Source: Ostreococcus lucimarinus
Lineage: Eukaryota
NCBI GenBank assembly: GCA_000092065.1
Contig: CP000582.1
Length of the DNA stretch: 64,000 nucleotides
Reading direction: 5' to 3' (one strand)
Numbering within the stretch: the first letter of the stretch is position 1; every line of letters begins with the position of its first letter. This document shows positions 3,429 to 46,159 of the stretch, one piece after another. A program made the position numbers and the translations under genes. The notes under the pieces are model-generated. The model was given only the letters and a program-made list of their open reading frames with translations, made no database searches and was not told where the DNA came from.

Positions 3429-3518
3429 GGAAAAATTTATATATCGCCCCTTTAGAGAGTACCTACACACATGACGAGTCATGAACCGTGGATATATACG
3501 TATTTTACACCGTTTAGT
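3429..3518. repeat. Left terminal inverted repeat (90 nt)
   Basis: ggaaaaatttatatatcgcccctttagagagtacctacacacatgacgagtcatgaaccgtggatatatacgtattttacaccgtttagt; its reverse complement is at 4192..4279. Confidence 0.8.
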
Positions 3519-3519
3519 T

Positions 3520-4086
3520 CTAAAAGTTTGATTCTACAACATCTACGAGGTACTTACTAATGCTAATTTGCTCGCCTTTGCTTGCCTTGCGTTTGTGTTC
3601 ATCGACCATCTTCTCGTGCCAGCCCCTCTTCCTGCTCAACGCCGTATCACCCGCCGCGCCTCTCATAGGAATCGCAACCAGGTTCGACATACCGAGCACA
3701 CCATCGCCGTCCATTTTGCTATTCTTGGACATGTTTTGAGACATCTCTCTGTGTGTCTTCAAGTTGTGCATGAAACGTTGAAGTTTGTCGAGCGCGTCTG
3801 TGATGTGTGCGGCTTCATCAGGCTCGAACGTAAACTCCGGATCGAGTGCGAGTTGTATCATCTCGGTACACGATTGAACCCAGCGTGACTTTACACTCAC
3901 GTTGTCGAAAGCTGCTCCAAGGCTTCTCCGATGAGTTGGTAGAGAGGCTTCAACATTATCTGGAATCGCTGGAGTCACGTGTCTCCTGGAATCGCTGGAG
4001 TCACGTGTCTCCTGGAGCCCGGACGATACGTGAAGAGCATCACCGAACGGATCGTCGAAGGGATCATCGTCGCACTCGTCTTCCAT
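3520..4086 (-). CDS. Hypothetical acidic protein encoded inside the TIR element (188 aa; N-terminal DDDPFDDPF, C-terminal basic SRKRGWHEKMVDEHKRKASKGE)
   Basis: Longest ORF in the element core. It might be the accessory DNA-binding ORF of a Harbinger-type element, but no clear Myb/SANT motif is seen. A 26-nt tandem duplication lies within it. Confidence 0.25.
   Translation of the reverse strand: MEDECDDDPFDDPFGDALHVSSGLQETRDSSDSRRHVTPAIPDNVEASLPTHRRSLGAAFDNVSVKSRWVQSCTEMIQLALDPEFTFEPDEAAHITDALDKLQRFMHNLKTHREMSQNMSKNSKMDGDGVLGMSNLVAIPMRGAAGDTALSRKRGWHEKMVDEHKRKASKGEQISISKYLVDVVESNF
3961..4012. repeat. Tandem duplication, 2 x 26 nt (tggaatcgctggagtcacgtgtctcc)
   Basis: Exact direct repeat read in the sequence. 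Being 26 nt rather than 27, it would shift the frame of any ORF crossing it. Confidence 0.85.
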
Positions 4087-4191
4087 CCGACCATCGCCCG
4101 CACGCGCGACGACAACTGGCGCGACAGGCGTGGAAAAGACACGAGGCGAACGTGTTTTTCACCAAGGTAGGAATACTCTATTGTAGATGGC

Positions 4192-4279
4192 ACTAAACGG
4201 TGTAAAATACGTATATATCCACGGTTCATGACTCGTCATGTGTGTAGGTACTCTCTAAAGGGGCGATATAAATTTTTCC
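4192..4279. repeat. Right terminal inverted repeat (88 nt)
   Basis: Reverse complement of 3429..3518. Confidence 0.8.
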
Positions 4280-4445
4280 CCCCGAACGCGTTTTTTGAAC
4301 GCGCCGGGGTTTAGCGAAACGCGATGGCGCAACCGTCGCGTTCGCGCGCCCGCCAGTGCGCGGTGCGGCCGCGGCCGCCCGCGGGTGCGCGTGAGTAGTT
4401 CGAGGTGATTCCGACGCGTCGCGTCCGCACGTCGTCGCGCGCCGA

Positions 4446-6239
4446 ATGCCTCGCACGTGCGTGTGCACGAACCCGAACTGCGACAAAGATGTCGAGCGAT
4501 TCGCGTTCCAACTCGGCAAGCACTGGAAAGACGACGTGCTCAAATCGATTCTATCGAGTCTCAGACCCGGAGCGGATGCTGATGACGTAGAAAAATACTT
4601 TTTGCGCGCGATGACGAAGCCCGATGGTGTTCGAGTGTCCTCGCAGCACTTCTTCTGGTACCATTTAGCATGGTCTCGAGGAGACCGCCCGAAGCTGGTC
4701 TTCAAAGATGGCGCGCACGTCCGGCCGACGTACATGCTCCATTCGAATCGGCCGACGTACGCGGGCGAACGAATCGTCGATCCGGCTCGTGTAGAATGTT
4801 TATCACCGCGCGAGACGCGTCTGCGCGTGAAGGCGCCGGCACGGGCGCCCCTTTCAGAGATTTCAAATTTGAATGAGGACGACGTGCATGCGACACAAGC
4901 TGGTGTCAGAGTTGGGATTAAACGGCGACGATCTGCTCCTGCGGCAATTTGCTCGCACAATCGCGCGCAAAACATGTCTTTGAACTCGTTTGAACGGGGA
5001 AGGCCGGGGGAAGAGACGTGCCGCGTGCAAGAAGGGACTATCCACAAGTTACGCTGTGATGAGTTGAAGTTGAGCGAGGCGCTGCGGGAAGAGCGTCAGC
5101 ACGCAGACGACGCGCGCGAGGACGTTCGTTTGCTCACGGAAGAACTTGAACGTATTCAAGAAGAAATGCACGACCAGGATCGAAAATCCTCGTTCGTAAC
5201 TATGCGATACTTGCGGGCGACGAGAGCTAGTGATAAGCAAATCAAAGCGCTTACTGGGTGGCCAACTTTGAAAACATTCGATGCTTTGTGGCGTTTCGTC
5301 AACGCGGGCGACCGCAATGCGACGCAAAACTTGTCGATTGTCAAACGAAAATGGAGGGGCGATTCGACGAGCGCGACGGGTTCGCATGGAACGGTCGTTC
5401 CGCGGAAAAAGAGCTTCAAATGGGAAGATGTATTTTTGGCGTGGTGGATGAGAGCGAAGATGGACTTGACCGCGGATCAACTTGCATACTTCGTCGGAAT
5501 ACACAAATCGACGCTTACACGTGCGCTACATCAAATGACATCATTTTTAACGGTTTTTATACGTGCTTACGGTGGCGACCCGATCGATCCCGAATGGATC
5601 CAGATGACAACAGGGGAGGATTGGAAAGAAGCATACGGGCAGAAACCTTATGAGATTATCGACGTGACTGAAGTGCCCATGGAGACTCCAGATGACCCAT
5701 ATATGCAGCGTTTGTTTTACAGTCATTATAAGAAGCGCTACGTGTGCAAATTTCTTGGCGCCTGTCACTCAAATTGTCTTGCCGCTTTCTGTTCAGTTGG
5801 GTTCCCTGGATCCATTTTTGACAATGAAATTTGCTTTGCTGGAAAGGATCATCCGATGCTTAATCATGCGGTACACCGAGCCAGCATCCGCCGGAGGACG
5901 TTCACAGACGAGAACGACGAAAATGTAGTCGTTCCCGAAACAATTGCAGCTGATCGTGGCTTTTGCGAAGGGTTGAATAGACAGTTTGAACGGGATGCGT
6001 TCAGGCTTGTGCACCCTGCGTTTTCAAGAGGCAAGAATGTGGCCTTCTCCAAGGAGGACATTCTCGACACCAGGGCGCAAGCATGTCGCCGAGTGCTAAT
6101 TGAAAATGCTTTCGGTCGCGTCAAGACGATTTGGAAGCGTATGCGCGGTCCAATAGCTATCTCCAAGCTGAAATCGGTGCATCAGGAGTGGCCAATAATA
6201 TTTTTCCTAGCGCTAGATTTACAAGCTTCGCTAAGGTAG
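4446..6239 (+). CDS. PIF/Harbinger-superfamily DDE transposase (DDE_Tnp_4-like), 597 aa, intronless
   Basis: C-terminal catalytic region: IIDVTEVPMETPDD (first D), YYSHYKKRYVCKF, IAADRGF (second D), LIENAFGRVKTIWKRMRG (E; Harbinger IERAFGxLKxRFRIL motif). N-terminal CxC..C zinc-finger-like stretch and an HTH-like ALTGWPTLKTFDALWRF. Preceded by an ~80% GC stretch 4280..4445. Confidence 0.7.
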   Translation: MPRTCVCTNPNCDKDVERFAFQLGKHWKDDVLKSILSSLRPGADADDVEKYFLRAMTKPDGVRVSSQHFFWYHLAWSRGDRPKLVFKDGAHVRPTYMLHSNRPTYAGERIVDPARVECLSPRETRLRVKAPARAPLSEISNLNEDDVHATQAGVRVGIKRRRSAPAAICSHNRAQNMSLNSFERGRPGEETCRVQEGTIHKLRCDELKLSEALREERQHADDAREDVRLLTEELERIQEEMHDQDRKSSFVTMRYLRATRASDKQIKALTGWPTLKTFDALWRFVNAGDRNATQNLSIVKRKWRGDSTSATGSHGTVVPRKKSFKWEDVFLAWWMRAKMDLTADQLAYFVGIHKSTLTRALHQMTSFLTVFIRAYGGDPIDPEWIQMTTGEDWKEAYGQKPYEIIDVTEVPMETPDDPYMQRLFYSHYKKRYVCKFLGACHSNCLAAFCSVGFPGSIFDNEICFAGKDHPMLNHAVHRASIRRRTFTDENDENVVVPETIAADRGFCEGLNRQFERDAFRLVHPAFSRGKNVAFSKEDILDTRAQACRRVLIENAFGRVKTIWKRMRGPIAISKLKSVHQEWPIIFFLALDLQASLR

Positions 6240-8354
6240 ATTCCGCGTCTCGCACGCGTCTGTAACCCTGTGTAAAGTACATTTGTGATTGTTCTCTTTT
6301 TCATATACGTCGAAATACTCCCTGAGAAGTGTTGATGGCTTGTTTCGCGACCACATCGCGCTTACATCAGGTGCAACTTCAGGGAGCTCCAAATCACCGT
6401 CACCGCGAGTGTCCACAGTGCATCGTCGCTTTGCGCGCCCAGCTTCGAATCGATTAAAGTCAATGTTGCTAAGAGGATTTTTGCGATTCATCGGATCCCC
6501 TTCGCCACTCGTGCCGAACCACTCACTTTCGAGCGACGTGCATGGATCAGCTGGTCGTTGCAACTTGGCAAAATACCAGAGCGCTGCGATGACATGGATG
6601 CACCCTCCGAAGTCTCCGCCCGCTCCCGCCTTGCACGCGCACGTCCCACGCTCGACACTGACGACATGGTCATGGACATGTTCATTCGTTTCTTCGTCGA
6701 TGCACCCATACTTGCATAACAAGCATACAGCGACGGCATAACGCTCTGCTTTGAGTGATGCCGGAATACCAACTCGGAACCACACGCGGAAGTGAGTTTG
6801 CATCCACGGATGCCCCACGTGCGCAAAACGAATCGGAAGGGGCGTCCGGGCGTGTATTCGTGCGTATCCTTGTCGATACGCTTTGGATCGAACCGGGTCG
6901 CCGTAAACGGACATCCCCGCGAGCCACGTCGTGATGATGTCCTCACCCATAAGCGGTGACGTCTCGCGGAAAAGCTCAACGTCAGTGCTCCACACTTCAG
7001 CATCCATTGGTGCGTCCAGATCGGGATCTAGCTCAGGGAATTGCGTCACCGGAAGATGAAAATGATGAACCAAATATGTATGAAGACTTTTCCCTTCTGG
7101 ATCCTGGACGTCGCCGTCGACGTCGATATCTAGCTCCTCGTACCGACGCTCAAGCTCCATCCTCTGTATGACCTCTGAGATGATGACATCTTTGTCCCGA
7201 ATATCCTGACATCCGCGGCGGCGATCGTTCCTACGCACGTTCAGCCAACGTATTAAATCCGATTTGGAGTTGTCCTCGACTCTCTTTTCCGGTAAAACGG
7301 CGCCTTTGATGAGATACTTGGGGATTCGTCTCGCCCGTGTTTCACCATGTCTAAAAAGGGCAGCCACTGCAACCAATTCAACGGGTTCGTGAGTATCCGC
7401 ATCGCGCAAACCTAAAGCGAATTCTTCGTTTTCTGAGTGATTTGCGTTGAATATGGTTGCGTCATTGAGCCAGCGTCTCTCTTTCGTCCGCATATCGTAC
7501 ACGATTGCTCGCTCAAAGCCCGCCAGGCTTTCCTCAAGTTTGAGAATTTGCGTGTCCTCATCACTCGCGTCGACGACGTCCTTCTTGACGAGGTATTTCA
7601 CAAAAGAGCGGATACTGAGAGTCTCTGCACTCTGTATGCACGCTACAATGGCTTTCAGAGCCGTTTGGGGTCCAAGTCCGGGAACTTTCCCCTCCCTGTA
7701 ATCACACCCGCTCGCCGCCGCCCACAAGCGCATGGCGGCGTCGCCGTGCATGCACATGAGCTCCGCAACTGTGTTCACCTCGTTCGTGTCTACCGGCATC
7801 CTCAGGTTGTTTCTGTTAAAAACGTTGCACTTTAACGTCGAAACGCTCCAAGACACCTTGTGGACGACCTTGGCGCACCCGAGCACCACTGCATCTGTGT
7901 CATCCGTCAACACGAAATCAACGAGACCACTCGACTCCATGTACTTCAACTGGTGATCTGATTCGTTTGGCGCCACGACGTACACGAATCCACGCTTCCG
8001 CACTTCATTCAGTATCCGAGGCAAATAACATCGTTCGAATTTTTCACCTATCGTACCTGCTCGCTTCGCGTGCGTCTCCTTCTTGTGTGCAGTCCTCGCA
8101 CCGTCGAAAACAAGGACTGGGAAGACACCTGCATTCACGAGCTTCGTAGCGCGCGAAATGACCGTTTCTACAGACGAATCCAGTTTATCCTGAACAGAAC
8201 CAGTTTTTCGCATCGCCCACCCCTGGTGTATCCAGATGTTTGCGTCTACCCCCGCTTTCGCGTTGGCGAACTCGCCGCCGATGGACGTGCGGACGACCGC
8301 ATCGTCGAACGCTTTCCACCCTGCGTCGACGCCCATACGCACCAGAATTTGCAA
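6231..8354 (-). CDS. XPG/Rad2-family (FEN1/EXO1-like) 5' nuclease fused to a C-terminal SWIM-type zinc finger; probable true start MGVDAGWKAF at 8336
   Basis: XPG-N: MGVDAGW...VFPVLVFDGARTAHKKETHAKR. XPG-I: VVAPNESDHQLKYM...VLTDDTDAVVLG. H3TH-like: GKVPGLGPQTALKAIV. C-terminal SWIM-like CxCxnCxH: GTCACKAGAGGDFGGCIHVIAALW. The 3' end overlaps the transposase ORF by 9 nt (convergent). Confidence 0.65.
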   Translation of the reverse strand: MQILVRMGVDAGWKAFDDAVVRTSIGGEFANAKAGVDANIWIHQGWAMRKTGSVQDKLDSSVETVISRATKLVNAGVFPVLVFDGARTAHKKETHAKRAGTIGEKFERCYLPRILNEVRKRGFVYVVAPNESDHQLKYMESSGLVDFVLTDDTDAVVLGCAKVVHKVSWSVSTLKCNVFNRNNLRMPVDTNEVNTVAELMCMHGDAAMRLWAAASGCDYREGKVPGLGPQTALKAIVACIQSAETLSIRSFVKYLVKKDVVDASDEDTQILKLEESLAGFERAIVYDMRTKERRWLNDATIFNANHSENEEFALGLRDADTHEPVELVAVAALFRHGETRARRIPKYLIKGAVLPEKRVEDNSKSDLIRWLNVRRNDRRRGCQDIRDKDVIISEVIQRMELERRYEELDIDVDGDVQDPEGKSLHTYLVHHFHLPVTQFPELDPDLDAPMDAEVWSTDVELFRETSPLMGEDIITTWLAGMSVYGDPVRSKAYRQGYARIHARTPLPIRFAHVGHPWMQTHFRVWFRVGIPASLKAERYAVAVCLLCKYGCIDEETNEHVHDHVVSVERGTCACKAGAGGDFGGCIHVIAALWYFAKLQRPADPCTSLESEWFGTSGEGDPMNRKNPLSNIDFNRFEAGRAKRRCTVDTRGDGDLELPEVAPDVSAMWSRNKPSTLLREYFDVYEKENNHKCTLHRVTDACETRNLP

Positions 8355-8671
8355 ACACGGCTACAACTCGATCAGAAATACATTTTGTCACCTGTTCATG
8401 TGCCTCCGCGATGCCCGACGCGCGTGCGCGCCACGACAGCAGCGTGAAAGTGACGGGGATGCGCGACGGGCCGAGCGAGTTCAAAAAAAGGACGAAAGGG
8501 CACCGGATTCGAGGTTTTCGTCGACAGTGGGTCATGACGAGTCACAAACGTTCGACTTAAATATGTAAAATGATAGGAAAACCTTAATGCAATGGGTCAT
8601 AATAGCTGAATATATATGGTTTCTCGTCGTAATGGACAAAAGTTGCTTTCATAAAAATAAGGATGTAGTTG

Positions 8672-8789
8672 TTACTGAGAGTGGGGTTCGAACCCACGCA
8701 GTCAATGACTACCAGAAATCTCACCAGTTTTTTCGGTGAAGCTTATTCGCACTTGAGTCTGGCCCCTTAGACCACTCGGGCATCCCAGC
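8672..8789 (-). tRNA. tRNA-Leu (anticodon CAA) with a 34-nt intron 3' of position 37; long variable arm; discriminator A73
   Basis: Minus-strand read: GCTGGGA TG CCCGAGTGGTCTAAGGGG C CCAGA CTCAAG[tgcgaataagcttcaccgaaaaaactggtgagat]T TCTGG TAGTCATTGACTGC GTGGG TTCGAAC CCCAC TCTCAGT A. The D-arm is almost identical to yeast tRNA-Leu. Anticodon stem CCAGA/TCTGG and T-stem GTGGG/CCCAC pair perfectly. The acceptor stem has two G-U pairs. A T-run (TTATTTTTA) lies downstream on the minus strand. Confidence 0.75.
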
Positions 8790-10646: not shown

Positions 10647-13600
10647 GTGACATATGACATCGTATTACAACGTTTTACCCCCACTTCGCAAGGACCGACC
10701 ACCCCATATCCATGTGCTATAAAAGCTAACTCAAAATGGAAGCTCGTACGTCTGAAACGCTTGGCGCTCGAGCGTTTCCGATGTCCGATGTTAACGCGCC
10801 ACAAACCGGAGAGCGTTCAGAATGGTACGCCCCGAAATGAATCACGAATGAGCAATCTAGACACACGCGCTATGTCGAACCCTTACTTTCAGGTCGGGCG
10901 ATGGGACTGCACGGACGAGCTCGAGGGGTGTCAATTCTCCGCGCCACATACGTCGGTGTCAGTTCCTAATTTCGAAGAGATTCAGACCCTTCACTACACC
11001 TGCGTGTATGAAGTGGCGATCACGTGTACACAGCGGCATGATATGCATAACGATGAGTTCGCGCATGTACTTAGTTCTGTCATCGAGCTCGCAAATCGCG
11101 TTGACCTGACACGACTTAGGCAACATCACTCCATAGATAACTTTGCCACACACGTTCTCACTTTTCGGTTCATTCTGGACCTGTTGAGGCAAACTTATCA
11201 GGAATACATCAAAGGAAGCATAGAAAATAATTCGTTTGAGCATGTCGAATTTACTTTCAACAATTGCATGGATGGTACGCACGGAATGGCAACATGCTTT
11301 AAACCGAATAAAAAGCATAGTCACCTTTGTTACATTTTGGATATTTCGCAGGCAGAAAGAAGTTGCAATGGTCGTACTGATGACACAAAATGCGTGCACG
11401 ACAAAATTACTATGAACGATCGCGTTCTTTCCGCGGCTAAGATCCCAGACAACGCAGTGAATAAACAATTCAGTGCTAGTATACTCAATGATGTGTATGG
11501 TTTCGATTCAAGTCTGTTCCATATTTCTCAGTCGGAAACCCTCTGCATGGACCCACAACAACGACTATTACTTCTTGCAGCAGCAGACTTATACCTGAGT
11601 AACACACGTGTTTGTCAACACGACGACTCCTTCTGCGTGCACGTCGGTGTATCGTGGAATGACTTTGAGGAAATTCGCAGAAAGTATAGTGCAGACTTTT
11701 TCTCCACTTATGATTCGACGGGAACATCAATAAGTGTCGCATCGGGTAGAATTGCGTATTATTTTGATTTCAAAGGGTGTGCTGTGACGATTGATACGGC
11801 TTGTTCATCATCTTTGGTTGCGTTGCATCAATCCATGTACGCAGCTGGCTCGCTCCGTGAATCAAGTGCACTTGTATGTGGCATCAACTTGATTTTGACA
11901 ACCACGATGACACATCGATTTCAGCTTGCTGGAATGATGTCTTCAGAGCATCGATGTATGACATTTGATGCACGCGCGGATGGCTACGTCCGGAGTGAGG
12001 CATGCAACATCGTACTCTTACACTTCAATGGCTTCACAAAAACTCATAGGAATGTACTGCGGCATGACGTTCATATGTCATGCGTCGTCAATCAAGATGG
12101 AACATCAACTGGACTTACGGCACCTAATGGAACAGCTCAGCGGAACCTGATGAATGAGTTACTATCGGACGTTTATAACCCTTCAAAACACGTTGGTGCT
12201 AAAATACATGCCCACGGCACAGGTACGCCTCTTGGGGATCCGATAGAGGTGTTTGCTATCAATTCTGCCCTCTCGTTTTCGTCACTGTGCAGGCTGTATG
12301 TGTCAGAAAAGTCGATGCGAGGGCACACAGAACCTGCTTCAGGTCTATGCAGCACCATACTTGCTTTCGTATCAGGTGCACAGTGCAAGCTACATGGTCA
12401 ACCACATTTACAGCAGTTAAACAATCATATACTAACATCGGTTGATGAAAGTATTTTTCAGCGTTCACTGCATTCCAGTTTTCCCTTAACTTCTATGGCG
12501 AGTGTCACCACAGTAAGCTCCTTCGCGTTCCAAGGGACGAACGCAATGGCTTCACTGACATATATCGACAAATGCAGTATTAGAGTGATTCGCAACACGT
12601 CAGGTCTGAGATCTTTGGTCAAGTTGGAGACTGAATCCCCTGTAAGACTCCCGTACACATTTTCTTGCCTTAGCATCGTCAATGGGAAAATGATACAGCT
12701 AACTTCAATGATTCACGACAAAACATTGAAGCGACTTTTGGATCATCGTGTAGCTGATATGCATCTTATGCCAGCCACAGGCCATCTTGAACTTGAAAGA
12801 GAGCTCACGAAGTGCGCTCTCGTAAGGAATGAACCATATCTTCTGACAAAGATCGCATTTATGCTGCCTCTCAAGCTTGATGAAAGCAATCAACTTATCA
12901 CAGAGATGAACACACATGGTCGCTTACGCGTTGGATGTGGCTCTGGCATATCCAATTACTGGTGTAGTACTGCACGACTTCAAATACCAGTAGGACGTGC
13001 CTGGTGCACGGACCGTACTTTTTATCTGACTAGTAAACTCGTTTCTCGGCGTTTCAAAGGTGCGACCGCAACAATAGCAGGGACGACGCCAATTCTCGAT
13101 TCACAAAATGTCGTGAATCCGTGTATCCAGGATGCGAGTCTACAATGCTCTGCATACGTCTTGAACACGTCAGCTTTCGCATCTGATACAACCTACATGG
13201 ACTGCGTATCGTTACTTAAGCTACCAACAACAATTCAAGACGTCATAGTTGTTAATCAGACAGGAAAAATACTTGTTAGATCGACGCATGTTGACATGTT
13301 GCAGAAGACGCAGCATGTGACTGAAAGTAATAACTCTGTCACAAGTAACTCTTCGAGTAACAATAAAACGCAGACATGGATACATCGTTTACTGTGTAAA
13401 GTATCAACCGTACGGATGAAAGCTGGCTTACGCACTCGCACATGCTTGGAACTCGCGAGATTGTTGTACCACGCGAGACAACAAAGAGTGCTGATATCAA
13501 ATATGCAAAACTTGCGTGAAGTAGGCAGTTTACATGCTCCAGAACTGATGCCCATCATGCGCGAAATGGGTCGTAAGTCAATGCAAGATATTAATTCGGC

Positions 13601-16600
13601 TAGTGCCTCTCTTTGCGCGGTTGCGCTGCTGCAGGCTTGCGGCGCTCGTGCGCGCGTTTCCGGCGCCCACGTGCGTGCAAACGACATCGTCCACGAGGAC
13701 GCTTCGGCCGCGCCCGCAGTCTGTGGATCGTGCGTGCGCGCCACCGTGCAATCTTCCGCGCAGGAACGCAGCGAGCCATTGGTGCTGAGTGTCGCGAGCG
13801 CCCCGCACACCGCGCCAGCCCGAGCGTTGCGATCGATCGCCGCCGGGGCGTCGATCGCCGGGGCGCTGTGCGTTGAGCGGCTGCTTCCGGCGTTCGGTCG
13901 CCGGACGCCCGCCGCGTCGCGCGACGGCGCGGCGACGACCACGGCGTCGCCGGCACCGAAAGTCTCGAGCGTGTTCGTGACTGGCGGTCTGGGCGCGTTG
14001 GGTCAGACTTCGGCGGCGTGGTACGCGCATCGAGGCGTTCGCCACGCCTACTTGACTGGTCGCCGCGGGCGCGGAGAGTCCCTTCTGCTGCGATGGTCGT
14101 CGCGCGGCGGTACCGACGTGAGCGCATTGCACGTGCTTCGCGTCGACGCGTGTGCGACCGACGAGGCGTCGTACGGCGGTGCGCGCGCGCACGCGCGCGT
14201 GCGCGCACACGGCGTGCTGCACGCGGGCGGCGTGCTACGCGACTCTTTGACTGCTCGCCAATCCGCGTCGGCCCATCGATACGTGTGGTCGTCCAAAGTA
14301 GTGTCCGCGCACGCATTGCTCCGCCAGTGCGTCGGCGTCGAGCGCGGCGCGCGTCACATCGCGCTGTTCTCGTCGGTGGCGGCGCTGCTGGGGAGTCCAG
14401 GGCAATGCAACTACAGCGCGGCCAACGCCGCGCTGGACGCGCGAGCCGCACACGAGTGGTGCCGCGGGTACGCGGTGCAATCCGTGCAGTGGGGCGCGTG
14501 GGACGGCGCGGGAATGGCGCTGACAAACGCGTCTGTACTCAGGAACGCGCGCACGACAGGCATCGGCGTGCTCGATCCGCAAGCCGGGCTCGGGGCCGTA
14601 CACGTCGCGCTTCAGGGCGCATCAGTGACGGGTCGCTGGCGGGCAATCCAAGGCGTCCTGGCCGTCGTCCCGTTCCAGTGGTCCGTGCTCGCGCGCGCGC
14701 AGCGCTCGCGCGCGCTGATTGCGGAGTACCGCGCGGAGTCGGCGCGGTCGAGCGCTCCAGTCGCCGTCCATCCGGGCGCCGAGGAAGACGCGGCGCGCGA
14801 TGTGTCAGATGAGAGCGTGCGGCAGATCGTGGCCTCCGCCGTGACGCGCGCGCTCGGCAGAGACGTGTCGGTGGACGCGTCGCTCATGGAAGAGGGCCTA
14901 GACTCGCTCGCGGCGGTCGAGCTCGGAGGGGCGTTACAAAAGGAAACGGGCGTGAACATGCCGGCCACGCTGGCATTTGACTACCCGACGATCACCGCGA
15001 TATCTGGGTACCTGAAGGGTGCGATGCTGGCGCGATCGCGTGCGCGCCAATCGAGCGGCGCGGCGTCCAGCGCCGCTCGCACGCGCGCCGCGAGCGGCGC
15101 GGTCGCGCATTCGCGCGACTCGATGCCAGGTATTGCATCCAACGCGCGCGAAATCTTGGGTCTTGCGCCCGTTGTTATGGCCATCAGACGGAGCGTGCGA
15201 CGACTCGACGCGGATGATCGAGAGCCAAAGCCTGCTCGACATGGCGGCTCGGCGTTGTTTTCATCGTTCGTGAGGTGCGTCATGGCAGAGCGAGCCTCTG
15301 AAGATCGCTTCGACACGCCATCGTTGGGCAGGCAGCCGAGCGCGACAGCGCGCGTGGTCTCCTTGACGAAAGCCAGAGATTTCACTACACAAGCTCTCGA
15401 CAGCATGCCGAAATGCAACGAGATTGAGCTGAGCGTCGTCAGCGCTGTGTCGAGTAAGGCATCAGGCGCGCACGATGCCGTGCGTGTGAACAACATGCGA
15501 CATGCGTGCGGCGAAGTGTGTGATCCACAAAGCTCAAAATCGCACGAGTTCGTCGCTCGGCGTCTTGTGCAGTTTGGGTACTTCATCGAGCGCAGCTTGT
15601 TTGACGGGGAGCAGTTCTCCGTAACGGCGCACGAGGCGCGGTTGATGGACCCGCAGCAGCGCGTGCTCCTGGAGAACGCGCTCGCCGCGACGAGTGCGAC
15701 GCCGCACAGCGCGCCGAAGCCAGCCACAGCCGTGTCCGTCGGCGCTTGGACGTCTCAGTACGCAGACATGTGCCGCGTGTACGAGCCAACGCCGGGGCCG
15801 TACTCTGGCGTTGCTTCCGCCTTGAGCGTGCTGTGCGGTCGCGTATCGTACACGTTTGGTATGCGTGGCCCGTCCGTGTGTGTCGACACCGCGTGCTCCT
15901 CCTCGCTCGTGGCCGCGCATGTTGCGAGCTCTCACTTGCGCGATGGATCGTGCGAGGACGCCCTCGTCGCCGGCGTGAGCGTGAACGTCGGCATCGGCAC
16001 CTTCCTCGTGGCCACCGCCGCGAGCATGCTATCGTTCGATGGTCGGTGCAAAACCTTGGATGCCAGCGCCGACGGTTACGCCAAGGGCGAGTGCTGCGTG
16101 GTCCTGCGCGTGTCGGTGGACGGGGCGAGCGCTGGAGCGCCCAAAGCGCCCGATCTTCCAAACGCCGAGTCTCCCTCTCTCGCTCTTCTCGAACAGACCG
16201 GTGTGAACCAGGATGGACGGTCGAGCTCGCTCACCGCACCAAACGGGCCGTCGCAGCAGGCACTCGTGGCCGATGCGCTTCTCCGCTCGGGGCTGCACGG
16301 CGACGCGCTCGGCAGGCTGGAGATGCACGGCACGGGTACTTCGCTGGGAGATCCGATAGAGGTCGGCGCCGCGCTTGAGGTTCTCGCGCCGCCGACGCGC
16401 GCGGACCGGGCGCCGTCCAGGGGCCCCGCGCTCACGCTTGAGGGCGTGAAGCCACGCGCTGGCCACTGCGAACCAGGGGCTGGCGCGGTTGGGTTGCTGT
16501 TTGCGATGGCAAACTTGACGGAGCGAGCCGTCGCGTCCCTCGTCCACCTGCGCCAGCTCAACCCTCACGTCGAGGCCGCGACGCGCCGAAACGCACCGTC

Positions 16601-19600
16601 GCCGCATGCGCGCGCGCCGGTGCTCGCGCGACAAGGCATGCCGCGACCGGATGACGGCGCGTCTGAGGCTGGAGCAGCGGACGCTGCTCGAGCGCGCGTG
16701 CGGCGATCCGGCGTGAGCGGCTTCGCGTTCCAGGGCACAAACGCGCACGCAATCATGGCCCGGGGACCCGGACAGGCGACTGCGCCCGGGTACACGGGAA
16801 GCACGCACACGGCGGCGCGTGCGTGGGAGCGTCAGCGCCACTGGTGCGCGCCAGAACGGCACTGCCTCATCGAGTCCGTGCGCGCTCTGCATCCTCGCGA
16901 GGGAGACTCGAGCGCGTTGGCGCGGTCGTGCGTGCGCCTGTGTCGGTCCGCGTCGCTCGCTGGCATGCTTGATCACGCCGTCGGGCTCCGGACGCTGCTA
17001 CCAGGCACAGCGCACGTCGAGATATGTCGAGCCATGGCGGGCGCGCTGGCAGACCAGCCGCTCGCCGACATCTCGCTGTCGCACGTATCTTTTGCAGCGC
17101 CCCTCGAGCTTCGAGCGCCGACGACCGACGTGCTGTGCGACGTCACGCCGCAAGGCGTGGCCCGCGTGGGCGTGCGCGTGTCGTCGTCCTCTGCCGCCGC
17201 GCCGTTCCTCGCGGGCGCGCTCAGCCGCAGAAGCGCCTCAAGAATTACTGCGTCTCCGGCGCACCTCTCGCGAGGACCGGCGATGCCCGCGCTGGACGTG
17301 CAGCCTTGTGTTCACGGCGCGAGCTGGCTGCGCTCGTCGCAGCGACGAGGCCCGGGCGCGGAGCACCGCGTGTACGGCGACATACGCGCGCGTCAGATGT
17401 CCACGCTGTCGGCTGCGGCGTATCACTCGCCGCCCGCAGTGCTCGATGCCGCGCTGCACGCGCTCAGCGCGTGCGCGCCGCCGCCGGGTAGCGATGCGAC
17501 AGAAGAGAGCCCGCACGTCCCGGCCACGATCGGCGGCGTCCGCACGCGAGGCGGGCACTCGGACATATACCGCGCCCGGTTCGCGCTCGCGACGGCTCCG
17601 CCTGAGCGCGGGGAGCGGAACGCGTCCACGCGCAGATCTCGTCACCACCTGTGGGACTGGTCGAGTCTTTCGGCGGCGCATCGAGGGTGCGTGGTGCACG
17701 CGCTGGAGTCTCGACGACTCGGTGGCGCCGCGGTCGTGCGCTCGCGAGCACAACAGCGCTCGAGGGCACCGCCGCCGCGTCGCGCGGCCGCGCCGCGTGT
17801 GCTTTATGGAGTCGGGCAACAGCGCGCGTGCGGCGCGGCGGATGGCCAGGGCGCGCGTCGACGCTCAACCCTCAACTCGCAGTGCTTTGTGGACGACGCG
17901 TCGCACCGCCGCGAGCTGATGGAGACCCACGCGTCACCATCGATCGCGCAAGGCAGCACGCGAAGCAGCACGCGCGCCTCTCTTTGCGCGGTTGCGCTGC
18001 TGCAGGCTTGCGGCGCTCGTGCGCGCGTTTCCGGCGCCCACGTGCGTGCAAACGACATCGTCCACGAGGACGCTTCGGCCGCGCCCGCAGTCTGTGGATC
18101 GTGCGTGCGCGCCACCGTGCAGTCTTCCGCGCAGGAACGCAGCGAGCCATTGGTGCTGAGTGTCGCGAGCGCCCCGCACACCGCGCCAGCCCGAGCGTTG
18201 CGATCGATCGCCGCCGGGGCGTCGATCGCCGGGGCGCTGTGCGTTGAGCGTCTGCTTCCGACGTTCGGTCGCCGGACGCCCGCCGCGTCGCGCGACGGCG
18301 CGGCGACGACCACGGCGTCGCCGGCACCGAAAGTCTCGAGCGTGTTCGTGACTGGCGGTCTGGGCGCGTTGGGTCAGACTTCGGCGGCGTGGTACGCGCA
18401 TCGAGGCGTTCGCCACGCCTACTTGACTGGTCGCCGCGGGCGCGGAGAGTCCCTTCTGCTGCGATGGTCGTCGCGCGGCGGTACCGACGTGAGCGCATTG
18501 CACGTGCTTCGCGTCGACGCGTGTGCGACCGACGAGGCGTCGTACGGCGGTGCGCGCGCGCACGCGCGCGTGCGCGCACACGGCGTGCTGCACGCGGGCG
18601 GCGTGCTACGCGACTCTTTGACTGCTCGCCAATCCGCGTCGGCCCATCGATACGTGTGGTCGTCCAAAGTAGTGTCCGCGCACGCATTGCTCCGCCAGTG
18701 CGTCGGCGTCGAGCGCGGCGCGCGTCACATCGCGCTGTTCTCGTCGGTGGCGGCGCTGCTGGGGAGTCCAGGGCAATGCAACTACAGCGCGGCCAACGCC
18801 GCGCTGGACGCGCGAGCCGCACACGAGTGGTGCCGCGGGTACGCGGTGCAATCCGTGCAGTGGGGCGCGTGGGACGGCGCGGGAATGGCGCTGACAAACG
18901 CGTCTGTACTCAGGAACGCGCGCACGACAGGCATCGGCGTGCTCGATCCGCAAGCCGGGCTCGGGGCCGTACACGTCGCGCTTCAGGGCGCATCAGTGAC
19001 GGGTCGCTGGCGGGCAATCCAAGGCGTCCTGGCCGTCGTCCCGTTCCAGTGGTCCGTGCTCGCGCGCGCGCAGCGCTCGCGCGCGCTGATTGCGGAGTAC
19101 CGCGCGGAGTCGGCGCGGTCGAGCGCTCCAGTCGCCGTCCATCCGGGCGCCGAGGAAGACGCGGCGCGCGATGTGTCAGATGAGAGCGTGCGGCAGATCG
19201 TGGCCTCCGCCGTGACGCGCGCGCTCGGCAGAGACGTGTCGGTGGACGCGTCGCTCATGGAAGAGGGCCTAGACTCGCTCGCGGCGGTCGAGCTCGGAGG
19301 GGCGTTACAAAAGGAAACGGGCGTGAACATGCCGGCCACGCTGGCATTTGACTACCCGACGATCACCGCGATATCTGGGTACCTGAAGGGTGCGATGCTG
19401 GCGCGATCGCGTGCGCGCCAATCGAGCGGCGCGGCGTCCAGCGCCGCTCGCACGCGCGCCGCGAGCGGCGCGGTCGCGCATTCGCGACGTACAACCATTA
19501 CTCAGCTCCCTCGTCTACGTCTATCATACGTTCCGCATGAAGTCAGCCGACGAACGACTCTTGGCATTAGCGGTCAATATTCTCACGAGCTTAGACACTT

Positions 19601-22600
19601 TAGCTCTGCGGGACCTTCGACCAGTAACTTTGAGGGAGTCCTCTTTGTTCGCATTCATAACTCCACCAAGCCCTTACCCGTGCATCCATATTTCATTGGC
19701 AACTTTTTGCGTTGTGACGAACTCGAGTTCGGCTTGTTTGGCGCACCGCACAGCGAATGGACTACTCTGGACGCGCGGCAGATTCTCTTGATTGAGAGTG
19801 TACACACTATCCAGCTGAACAACAGTTCAGACGTTTCATTGCGCACTCTAGAGACGACGGCTGTTCTTGTTGGAGCACAAGCGGTAGATTCAACTGACGA
19901 GCATAGCGTTGAGATACAGTACAACGCCTACTCTGGCGTTGCTTCCGCCTTGAGCGTGCTGTGCGGTCGCGTATCGTACACGTTTGGTATGCGTGGCCCG
20001 TCCGTGTGTGTCGACACCGCGTGCTCCTCCTCGCTCGTGGCCGCGCATGTTGCGAGCTCTCACTTGCGCGATGGATCGTGCGAGGACGCCCTCGTCGCCG
20101 GCGTGAGCGTGAACGTCGGCATCGGCACCTTCCTCGTGGCCACCGCCGCGAGCATGCTATCGTTCGATGGTCGGTGCAAAACCTTGGATGCCAGCGCCGA
20201 CGGTTACGCCAAGGGCGAGTGCTGCGTGGTCCTGCGCGTGTCGGTGGACGGGGCGAGCGCTGGAGCGCCCAAAGCGCCCGATCTTCCAAACGCCGAGTCT
20301 CCCTCTCTCGCTCTTCTCGAACAGACCGGTGTGAACCAGGATGGACGGTCGAGCTCGCTCACCGCACCAAACGGGCCGTCGCAGCAGGCACTCGTGGCCG
20401 ATGCGCTTCTCCGCTCGGGGCTGCACGGCGACGCGCTCGGCAGGCTGGAGATGCACGGCACGGGTACTTCGCTGGGAGATCCGATAGAGGTCGGCGCCGC
20501 GCTTGAGGTTCTCGCGCCGCCGACGCGCGCGGACCGGGCGCCGTCCAGGGGCCCCGCGCTCACGCTTGAGGGCGTGAAGCCACGCGCTGGCCACTGCGAA
20601 CCAGGGGCTGGCGCGGTTGGGTTGCTGTTTGCGATGGCAAACTTGACGGAGCGAGCCGTCGCGTCCCTCGTCCACCTGCGCCAGCTCAACCCTCACGTCG
20701 AGGCCGCGACGCGCCGAAACGCACCGTCGCCGCATGCGCGCGCGCCGGTGCTCGCGCGACAAGGCATGCCGCGACCGGATGACGGCGCGTCTGAGGCTGG
20801 AGCAGCGGACGCTGCTCGAGCGCGCGTGCGGCGATCCGGCGTGAGCGGCTTCGCGTTCCAGGGCACAAACGCGCACGCAATCATGGCCCGGGGACCCGGA
20901 CAGGCGACTGCGCCCGGGTACACGGGAAGCACGCACACGGCGGCGCGTGCGTGGGAGCGTCAGCGCCACTGGTGCGCGCCAGAACGGCACTGCCTCATCG
21001 AGTCCGTGCGCGCTCTTCATCCTCGCGAGGGAGACTCGAGCGCGTTGGCGCGGTCGTGCGTGCGCCTGTGTCGGTCCGCGTCGCTCGCTGGCATGCTTGA
21101 TCACGCCATCGGGCTCCGGACGCTACTACCAGGCACAGCGCACGTCGAGATATGTCGAGCCATGGCGGGCGCGCTGGCAGACCAGCCGCTCGCCGACATC
21201 TCGCTGTCGCACGTATCTTTTGCAGCGCCCCTCGAGCTTCGAGCGCCGACGACCGACGTGCTGTGCGACGTCACGCCGCAAGGCGTGGCCCGCGTGGGCG
21301 TGCGCGTGTCGTCGTCCTCTGCCGCCGCGCCGTTCCTCGCGGGCGCGCTCAGCCGCAGAAGCGCCTCAAGAATTACTGCGTCTCCGGCGCACCTCTCGCG
21401 AGGACCGGCGATGCCCGCGCTGGACGTGCAGCCTTGTGTTCACGGCGCCATCAGACGGAGCGTGCGACGACTCGACGCGGATGATCGAGAGCCAAAGCCT
21501 GCTCGACATGGCGGCTCGGCGTTGTTTTCATCGTTCGTGAGGTGCGTCATGGCAGAGCGAGCCTCTGAAGATCGCTTCGACACGCCATCGTTGGGCAGGC
21601 AGCCGAGCGCGACAGCGCGCGTGGTCTCCTTGACGAAAGCCAGAGATTTCACTACACAAGCTCTCGACAGCATGCCGAAATGCAACGAGATTGAGCTGAG
21701 CGTCGTCAGCGCTGTGTCGAGTAAGGCATCAGGCGCGCACGATGCTGTGCGTGTGAACAACATGCGACATGCGTGCGGCGAAGTGTGTGATCCACAAAGC
21801 TCAAAATCGCACGAGTTCGTCGCTCGGCATCTTGTGCAGTTTGGGTACTTCATCGAGCGCAGCTTGTTTGACGGGGAGCAGTTCTCCGTAACGGCGCACG
21901 AGGCGCGGTTGATGGACCCGCAGCAGCGCGTGCTCCTGGAGAACGCGCTCGCCGCGACGAGCGCGACGCCGCACAGCGCGCCGAAGCCAGCCACAGCCGT
22001 GTCCGTCGGCGCTTGGACGTCTCAGTACGCAGACATGTGCCGCGTGTACGAGCCAACGCCGGGGCCGTACTCTGGCGTTGCTTCCGCCTTGAGCGTGCTG
22101 TGCGGTCGCGTATCGTACACGTTTGGTATGCGTGGCCCGTCCGTGTGTGTCGACACCGCGTGCTCCTCCTCGCTCGTGGCCGCGCATGTTGCGAGCTCTC
22201 ACTTGCGCGATGGATCGTGCGAGGACGCCCTCGTCGCCGGCGTGAGCGTGAACGTCGGCATCGGCACCTTCCTCGTGGCCACCGCCGCGAGCATGCTATC
22301 GTTCGATGGTCGGTGCAAAACCTTGGATGCCAGCGCCGACGGTTACGCCAAGGGCGAGTGCTGCGTGGTCCTGCGCGTGTCGGTGGACGGGGCGAGCGCT
22401 GGAGCGCCCAAAGCGCCCGATCTTCCAAACGCCGAGTCTCCCTCTCTCGCTCTTCTCGAACAGACCGGTGTGAACCAGGATGGACGGTCGAGCTCGCTCA
22501 CCGCACCAAACGGGCCGTCGCAGCAGGCACTCGTGGCCGATGCGCTTCTCCGCTCGGGGCTGCACGGCGACGCGCTCGGCAGGCTGGAGATGCACGGCAC

Positions 22601-45910: not shown

Positions 45911-46134
45911 GAGAATGAACCCAATCCCGTATTATAGTGGTTCTAACGCATATGTCTACACTACATGACCTAGACCTACATATAGACTTAGCGCGTATGA
46001 ATAAGCATCGGACAAGCACGCACGGCATCCATCGCGACTTATAAACCCAAGGTTTCTCAATTTAGACTTTCGCCGTTTTGCGATGGTGTATAATAAGCGT
46101 TGACAACACTATAATACAGGATTGGGTTCATCTC
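45911..46134. mobile_element. MITE-like element (about 224 bp) with about 38-bp imperfect terminal inverted repeats, lying in the promoter of the aconitase B gene
   Basis: Left TIR gagaatgaacccaatcccgtattatagtggttctaacgc (45911-45949). Reverse complement of the right TIR (46097-46134) is gagatgaacccaatcctgtattatagtgttgtcaacgc, about 33/38 identical. The core is AT-rich and non-coding. Confidence 0.55.
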
Positions 46135-46159
46135 ATGTGTCAATATCTCTCAGCCACAG

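Follow-up and report, generated by a model that had tools for sequence, protein, structure and literature searches.

The window analysed here, i.e. a stretch of 64,000 nucleotides of the contig CP000582.1 from Ostreococcus lucimarinus (GenBank assembly GCA_000092065.1), contains at positions 3429-8599 what is very probably a copy of an autonomous cut-and-paste transposon of the PIF/Harbinger-ISL2EU-Spy superfamily (PHIS), in which an XPG-type nuclease with a SWIM-like zinc finger (XPG-SWIM) would be the obligatory partner of the transposase, its favoured role being resection or flap removal on the 5' strand. The slot of the second gene, occupied in canonical PIF/Harbinger elements by the Myb/SANT protein, is held by XPG-SWIM. 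Intact copies of the element are about 4.4 kb long, a nested passenger raising their length to 5.3 kb, and carry exactly two convergent genes, as seen in the two-gene copy of 4,417 bp on L017. The L-numbers denote the compared contigs carrying related loci and the P-numbers distant protein relatives, the residues being numbered according to the 701-aa XPG-SWIM protein. The features of the element in the window are the following:

3429..4279: nested 850-bp element with inverted repeats of 86-90 nt (3433-3518 and 4192-4277)
3520-4086, minus strand: open reading frame (ORF) of the nested element, 188 aa, XP_001416425.1
4280..4445: region upstream of the transposase gene and subterminal in the element, preceded in intact copies by the left TIR and about 105 nt
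4446..6239, plus strand: PHIS-superfamily (PIF/Harbinger-type) DDE transposase, 597 aa, predicted triad D406/D503/E553, XP_001416176.1 (OSTLU_119558)
6231..8336, minus strand: gene of the XPG(EXO1-like)-SAP-like-SWIM-like accessory protein, 701 aa, ATG at 8336
6561..6833, minus strand: SWIM-like zinc-finger module, aa 502-592, four beta strands, CxCx10CxH, then a helix
6594..6641, minus strand: CxCx10CxH motif CACKAGAGGDFGGCIH, aa 566-581
7212..7274, minus strand: possible SAP-like helix-extended-helix motif DLIRWLNVRRNDRRRG, aa about 355-375
7701..7991, minus strand: XPG_I domain, aa 116-212, with E125, D127, D146, D148 and D212 (Pfam E 4.1e-15)
8058..8336, minus strand: XPG_N domain, aa 1-93, with D31, D78, K85 and R92 (Pfam E 6.3e-12, EXO1 alignment)
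8337..8599: XPG-side subterminal region, where homology to L001, L008 and L002 stops
about 8579-8599: right terminal inverted repeat (TIR) CCTTAATGCAATGGGTCA (reverse complement TGACCCATTGCATTAAGG), pairing with the left TIR of L008
8600..8602: flanking TAA, presumably one of the two copies of a 3-bp TWA target duplication, from the empty-allele comparison

The 701-aa product is an exact match to the protein ABO94719.1/XP_001416426.1 of O. lucimarinus CCE9901, annotated as 'Exodeoxyribonuclease I'. Across the window, seven ORF products agree exactly with proteins of this strain. The 707-aa ORF at 6231-8354 (minus strand) reported in the initial annotation does exist and opens with TTG at 8354; the most likely start of the gene is the in-frame ATG at 8336, to which the TTG would add six codons. 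The XPG-N, XPG-I and H3TH modules recognised there have stood up as well, both Pfam domains scoring above the curated cut-offs (46.3 bits versus 22 for XPG_N and 56.4 bits versus 24.9 for XPG_I), and the H3TH region SGCDYREGKVPGLGPQTALKAI (SGCDY..GLGPQTALKAI), located after the I domain, matching the residues 219-242 of EXO1 with both G220 and G222 invariant. In the alignment, the acidic residues D31, D78, E125, D127, D146, D148 and D212 correspond to D30, D78, E150, D152, D171, D173 and D225 of EXO1, respectively, and the basic pair K85/R92 in the helix alpha4 occupies exactly the EXO1 positions K85/R92, the roles of these residues being known from EXO1 structures. Human EXO1 is the best solved relative, and a profile of the nuclease half made from five family members and run against the PDB yielded E-values of 2.9e-36 for EXO1, 2.8e-25 for Rad2, 3.5e-20 for FEN1 and 5e-14 for GEN1. 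The closest named protein is the EXO1 from Symbiochloris (E 2e-6, 26% identity). Between its N and I domains, the protein has a helical arch approximately 25 aa shorter than that of EXO1; this shortening is found in the Ostreococcus clade, the distant family members keeping a longer or full-length arch. By its domains, its metal ligands with the Lys/Arg pair and its H3TH motif, the nuclease half belongs to the XPG/Rad2 (FEN1/EXO1/GEN1/XPG) structure-specific 5' nucleases, and its active site is intact.

Concerning the C-terminal half, the SWIM-type finger proposed in the initial annotation holds with regard to its ligand motif CxCxnCxH, the residues C566, C568, C579 and H581 being invariant in the family alignment of 13 sequences, but not with regard to the Pfam threshold, the score being 14.6 bits versus 19.6. 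The module is thus named SWIM-like, because the motif is there, the profile score falls short and the fold is suggestive. In raw sequences of a few relatives, CxxC-type variants were seen in the first ligand pair. The family alignments revealed other invariant or nearly invariant features, i.e. the PASMK strand, R594 and the motifs PCTS..C.WN.P and L..WL..RG, with the conserved PCTS..E/C.W motif coming after the SWIM-like module. No Pfam match was obtained in the C-terminal half when the full-length protein was searched, and neither a transposase fold nor a transposase match was found in the C-terminal 400 aa; the C-terminal profile gave no match among the PDB sequences, and Foldseek no significant match against the PDB and BFVD. 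The full-length AF2 model, based on an alignment of three sequences, was unusable (predicted local distance difference test score of 36). The hint at a MULE/FAR1 ancestry was not borne out since no MULE or FAR1 domain was found, the Pfam matches being absent at E<=1 for the protein and 13 relatives and at E<=10 for the isolated C-terminal 407 aa.

When 1.84 billion representative proteins were screened with a profile built from the C-terminal 462 aa, 34 relatives were retrieved. Recognisable N-terminal XPG domains are present in four distant long ones (P0029, P0030, P0033 and P0038), and according to the alignment, the H3TH region of XPG is retained also in P0024 and P0025. Since distant relatives share the XPG N-termini, the combination of an XPG nuclease with a SWIM finger, originally pointed out as unusual, represents a conserved architecture and not a one-off fusion. 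The word-indexed search with the family profile delivered only metagenome fragments and no named proteins, the search with a closer alignment found no relatives among viral contigs, and none of the other named genomes gave a homologue.

The transposase exceeds the Pfam cut-off for DDE_Tnp_4 (E 4.5e-18; 65.8 bits versus 24.8), its residues D406, D503 and E553 are invariant in four lineages, and the transposases are homologous over their full length. The linkage between both genes was read on the contigs of six lineages (the window type on L001, together with L002, L003, L004/L005, L006 and L007), and in all six a convergent DDE_Tnp_4 gene follows the XPG-SWIM gene, down to an identity of ~20-25%. 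The window-type copy on L001 shares 99.5% DNA identity with the window. The 9-nt overlap of the 3' ends described previously is real, the shared 9-mer CTAAGGTAG at 6231-6239 holding both TAG stops, and it is found also in the L002 relative (67% aa identity). An XPG-SWIM gene without the transposase was seen only in decayed or rearranged copies, which speaks against the idea of a domesticated nuclease derived from a transposable element. For the XPG-SWIM gene compared with that of L002, the non-synonymous divergence (dN) is 0.235 and the synonymous one (dS) 1.88, i.e. dN/dS is about 0.13, with a dN of 0.12 in the SWIM region; the transposase exhibits a dN of 0.29 and a dS of 1.6. Purifying selection thus maintains both genes. 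The 4.4-kb copies have room for two ORFs only, with no Myb match in Pfam; no THAP or YqaJ match was found in Pfam either. It should be mentioned that the N-terminus of the transposase (window 4446-4660) contains a conserved CxCx4C…(V)SSxHF pattern, reminiscent of a degenerate THAP finger and giving no Pfam match; the THAP domain is a trait of the ISL2EU transposases (PMC4482050).

The TIRs of the element are 20 nt long and start with TAGAC. The form TAGACCCATT[GC]C[AT][CT]TAAGG occurs at both ends of the copies on L002, L008 and L017, that of L002 reading TAGACCCATTCC[A/T]CTAAGGA; the left TIR of L008, TAGACCCATTGCACTAAGGAA, pairs with the XPG-side right TIR, and the distant L004 has TAGACA.C.CCGCAT. 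At its right junction the window reads GGGTCA directly followed by TAATAGCTG, and the empty allele L042 reads ...ATTAATAATAGCTG..., the TAA being present in the empty allele. Matched 3-bp target site duplications (TSDs) were identified in L036 (TAA/TAA) and L002 (TTA/TTA), and single flanks are mostly TAA or TTA. A 2-bp TA duplication as in ISL2EU, or none as in Spy, is less likely in view of the matched TAA and TTA pairs; because TA stands at both ends of every copy, it cannot be separated from the TIR sequence.

Several observations touch the element ends. The contigs L030 and L036 share at about 6098 the same left junction (GTTTTATAA followed by TAGACCC) with the element in opposite orientations, implying that one TAA has been used repeatedly or that the element has been inverted where it stood. 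At L002 88-240, two XPG-side ends abut head to head (…GGAATGGGTC TTATA GACCCATTCC…), which could stem from two insertions side by side, from an end-to-end junction or from an artefact of metagenome assembly. At about 6097-6162, L037 carries a 66-bp insert with the ends CCTTTTTTAGTG/CACTAAAAAAGG, similar to a miniature inverted-repeat transposable element (MITE), its centre TATGGGTCATATATGACCCATA resembling two abutted termini of the XPG element.

The recent mobility of the whole unit is evident from the comparison of alleles. At its own locus, the contigs of which were recognised by an identical STN7 kinase, L040 is filled with an element 99.97% identical to that of the window and L042-L046 are empty, their flanks being 99.8% identical to the window. 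The second locus has a PsbP-like gene on one side and a tRNA on the other. It is empty on L034 and L035, the element being present on L030, L033, L038 and L008 and, in the opposite orientation, on L036; L035 shares a flank of 100% identity with the filled alleles. The copies in the window and on L008 differ by three substitutions per gene. There is also a second subfamily, the members of which share 95-98% identity with each other and 88% with the window type and occupy at least four unrelated flanks of low GC content. The compact composite mobile unit envisaged in the initial annotation is thus substantiated as a TIR-bounded, dispersed unit polymorphic for presence and absence, and the gene, instead of being single-copy with orthologues in transposon-free contexts, exists in multiple copies linked to the transposase.

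With regard to the hosts of these copies, an MCM3-like protein at L001 2375-4495 and in the L008 flanks is 51% identical to its best named match (O. mediterraneus), and the PsaL of the PsbP-locus contigs with a 99%-identical copy falls into a 90% cluster without any named Ostreococcus member. A recent horizontal spread of the element is possible.

A tRNA gene adjoins both loci. In the window, it is an intron-containing gene of 117 nt (8673-8789, minus strand), located 74 nt from the transposon end; it scored 42.4 bits in Rfam, was missed by ARAGORN and reads like a tRNA-Leu with a CAA anticodon. A similar tRNA with its flank (about 86% identical) adjoins the second locus (L008, L035), the insertion there being 16 nt further from the tRNA. 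Targeting of tRNA genes, considered because the insertions of two lineages lie 16 nt apart by the same tRNA flank, was rejected, as the other insertion loci are without a tRNA.

The segment 3429-8599 itself is, by comparison with other copies, a 5'-truncated copy of the element with both proteins still encoded intact. Its left TIR is missing together with about 105 nt of element sequence, L008 4847-4951 having no counterpart in the window, and no second TIR within three mismatches was found in the 64-kb window; the stretch TAGATGGCACTAAACGG at about 4184 was examined as a degenerate left TIR and abandoned, since L008 places it inside the nested element. In comparison with the empty allele L042, the window is also without 61 nt of host DNA. 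The endpoint of the deletion (3428/3429) coincides exactly with the outer end of the nested element, and it looks like an adjacent deletion made by the latter. The nested element (L008 4952-5805) sits about 105 bp inside the left end of the transposon. Its orientation in the window is opposite to that in L008, where the direct repeat CCCGAACGCGTTT flanks it, and neither L002 nor L017 contains it. It is a passenger in the window subfamily, not a part of the core, and has the look of a mobile or invertible element in its own right. Its protein XP_001416425.1 belongs to a 90% cluster with 59 members, three O. tauri proteins among them.

A different arrangement was observed on L031 (6233-10063; also on L032 and L039), where a 1277-aa ORF joins XPG-SWIM (residues 1-656) in frame to a piggyBac-type transposase (DDE_Tnp_1_7, E 1.8e-44). 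Its XPG-SWIM part is 88% identical to the window protein and has the catalytic D78 replaced by V. In the three contigs, the chimera ends with a different TIR, CCTTTTTTAGTG, on one side and a Harbinger-type TIR on the other.

Based on the above results, the following scheme may be proposed. The transposase would cut and join the TIR ends, with XPG-SWIM as its obligatory partner; the SAP-like and SWIM-like modules would tether XPG-SWIM to the transposon DNA or to the transposase, replacing the recruiting role of the Myb protein, and the intact XPG active site would process the 5' strands of the transposition intermediates. The role favoured for the nuclease is to resect the excision break 5'->3' or to remove flaps there; the donor site would then be repaired by homologous recombination with the sister chromatid as template, and the element would be restored. 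This role is preferred because EXO1, lambda-type exonucleases and RecQ helicases are 5'-end resection enzymes, and because canonical PHIS elements do not need to encode a nuclease.

Several points weigh against this explanation. Since canonical PIF/Harbinger elements manage transposition without encoding a nuclease, the nuclease may be dispensable, and its role in any transposition step is inferred from the sequence. The SWIM family (PF04434), the sole Pfam match of the isolated C-terminal segment, stays below the threshold with an E-value of 0.025, and its profile scores on just two of the 13 members (best E 0.075); the call of the SAP-like motif is tentative and weak. The TWA duplication is likely, not proven, because the flanks are unmatched in L017 (AAA/TAC) and L004 (TAA/TTG) and because the empty allele L035 carries 9 nt more than a simple TAA duplication predicts. 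The transposase is assigned, by its sequence, to PHIS without a subgroup. The copy in the window is probably immobile since its left TIR is missing. Finally, an existing Repbase entry for the family is possible; in the searchable literature, no description of an architecture combining DDE_Tnp_4 with XPG-SWIM was found.

Among the other explanations, the main rival, rather unlikely, is that XPG-SWIM represents a catalytic, TnsA-like subunit of a heteromeric transposase, needed for excision itself and not for repair; the DDE protein would cut and join the 3' ends, and cleavage of the non-transferred 5' strands at the TIRs would fall to the XPG nuclease. The active site, including K85 and R92, intact across the family, the strict coupling of the genes with their overlapping 3' ends, and the arch shortened in the Ostreococcus clade, which could permit action on DNA without a free 5' end, would all suit such a subunit; the arch, however, is full-length in the distant members, and other PHIS elements handle both strands with the DDE protein and a non-catalytic Myb partner (PMC4482050). 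That the element would be the first eukaryotic cut-and-paste transposon with a split chemistry, i.e. with DDE acting on the 3' strands and an XPG nuclease guided by the SWIM-like finger on the 5' strands, is graded as rather unlikely; if true, the element, being active at present in wild Ostreococcus populations, could offer a model for the mechanism as well as a genetic tool for picoalgae.

It is improbable that XPG-SWIM is a passenger, i.e. a captured host EXO1-like gene without any role in transposition. Transposons do capture host genes, the window subfamily carries the unrelated nested element with the 188-aa ORF, and one allele has XPG-SWIM fused to the piggyBac-type transposase; nevertheless, the order and orientation of the two genes are the same in lineages sharing only 20-25% identity, both genes exhibit similar purifying selection, there is no Myb-type partner for the accessory job, and none of the cellular EXO1 proteins found shares more than about 26% identity with it. 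Scarcely credible is a host DNA-repair gene, an EXO1 paralogue or a domesticated nuclease, standing beside the transposase by chance. The annotation 'Exodeoxyribonuclease I' and EXO1 as the best PDB match would fit it, but the gene is enclosed by the TIRs, haplotypes otherwise 99.8% identical lack the entire unit, multiple copies of it occur at unrelated loci, and no other named genome has yielded a homologue; this explanation is already contradicted by the empty alleles unless these are assembly artefacts. The preferred explanation thus remains that of a PHIS transposon with XPG-SWIM as the partner of its transposase.

As for the remaining parts of the window, there is a single polyketide-synthase ORF of 4658 aa at 10647-24623 (plus strand), the interior of which consists of near-identical repeated modules with 66-71% GC, the flanks having about 45% GC. 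A short repeat in an inverted-repeat arrangement, possibly a MITE, is common to the window (45915-46152, upstream of the aconitase gene) and the unrelated L001 locus (4623-4774, upstream of the MCM gene), with an identity of 80-89%.

With regard to its significance, the reference annotation is corrected, 'Exodeoxyribonuclease I' being a transposon gene, and PHIS would gain a lineage whose accessory protein is an enzyme and not a Myb-type DNA binder. The element is intact, almost the same from one locus to another and polymorphic in nature, within a model genus of picoalgae that can be transformed, and for these reasons the question is accessible experimentally.

When compared with known systems, the element shares with PIF/Harbinger the DDE_Tnp_4 transposase with its DDE triad, the short TIRs, the mostly TWA flanks and the presence of two genes; the PIF/Harbinger group is defined by TWA duplications and a Myb/SANT second ORF (PMC4482050). 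It differs by having a 700-aa XPG nuclease with a SWIM-like finger in place of the Myb/SANT (or MADF) protein, TIRs starting with TAGAC where GG is usual, and convergent genes with overlapping stops. ISL2EU, which together with AcademX is the closest precedent and is reported only from animals, has as its defining traits a THAP domain in the transposase, a YqaJ exonuclease in the second ORF and duplications of AT (PMC4482050); it has in common with the present element the transposase superfamily, the exonuclease in the second ORF and a similar size (about 4.8 kb), and since that ORF carries a 5'->3' exonuclease domain, the functional logic of both appears to be alike. The YqaJ nuclease, however, has the lambda-exonuclease fold and is unrelated to XPG, the TSDs of ISL2EU are 2-bp AT whereas TA or TWA flanks are seen here, and the THAP transposase of ISL2EU, its, TIRs starting with GG and animal hosts contrast with the lack of a detected THAP and the green picoalgal host here.

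Of the Academ transposons, AcademX has an XPG nuclease and a Cys8 finger fused to the Academ transposase, AcademH containing a RecQ-like helicase instead (PMC7165386). AcademX is thus likewise a eukaryotic DNA transposon with an XPG-family nuclease and a zinc finger and with TSDs of 3-4 bp, but its transposase is of another superfamily and its XPG part belongs to one giant protein with the Cys8 finger, whereas here XPG is encoded by a separate gene, with a CCCH SWIM-like finger, beside the DDE_Tnp_4 transposase. Tn7 with TnsA/TnsB may serve as a possible analogy only, combining a DDE transposase with a separate nuclease; TnsA has a restriction-enzyme fold and no homology to XPG-SWIM. EXO1, the best-scoring solved relative, agrees in the N and I domains, the H3TH, the seven acidic residues and the K85/R92 positions, and differs in the identity of about 26%, the arch shortened in the window clade, the unrelated C-terminal half, and in that XPG-SWIM is encoded in a transposon absent from sister haplotypes. 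Lying inside TIRs, polymorphic and multi-copy, the XPG-SWIM gene is not an EXO1 orthologue. Taken together with ISL2EU (YqaJ), AcademX (XPG) and AcademH (RecQ-like helicase), the element suggests that unrelated transposons have repeatedly acquired 5'-end resection enzymes, which points to a general strategy of steering the repair of the excision break.

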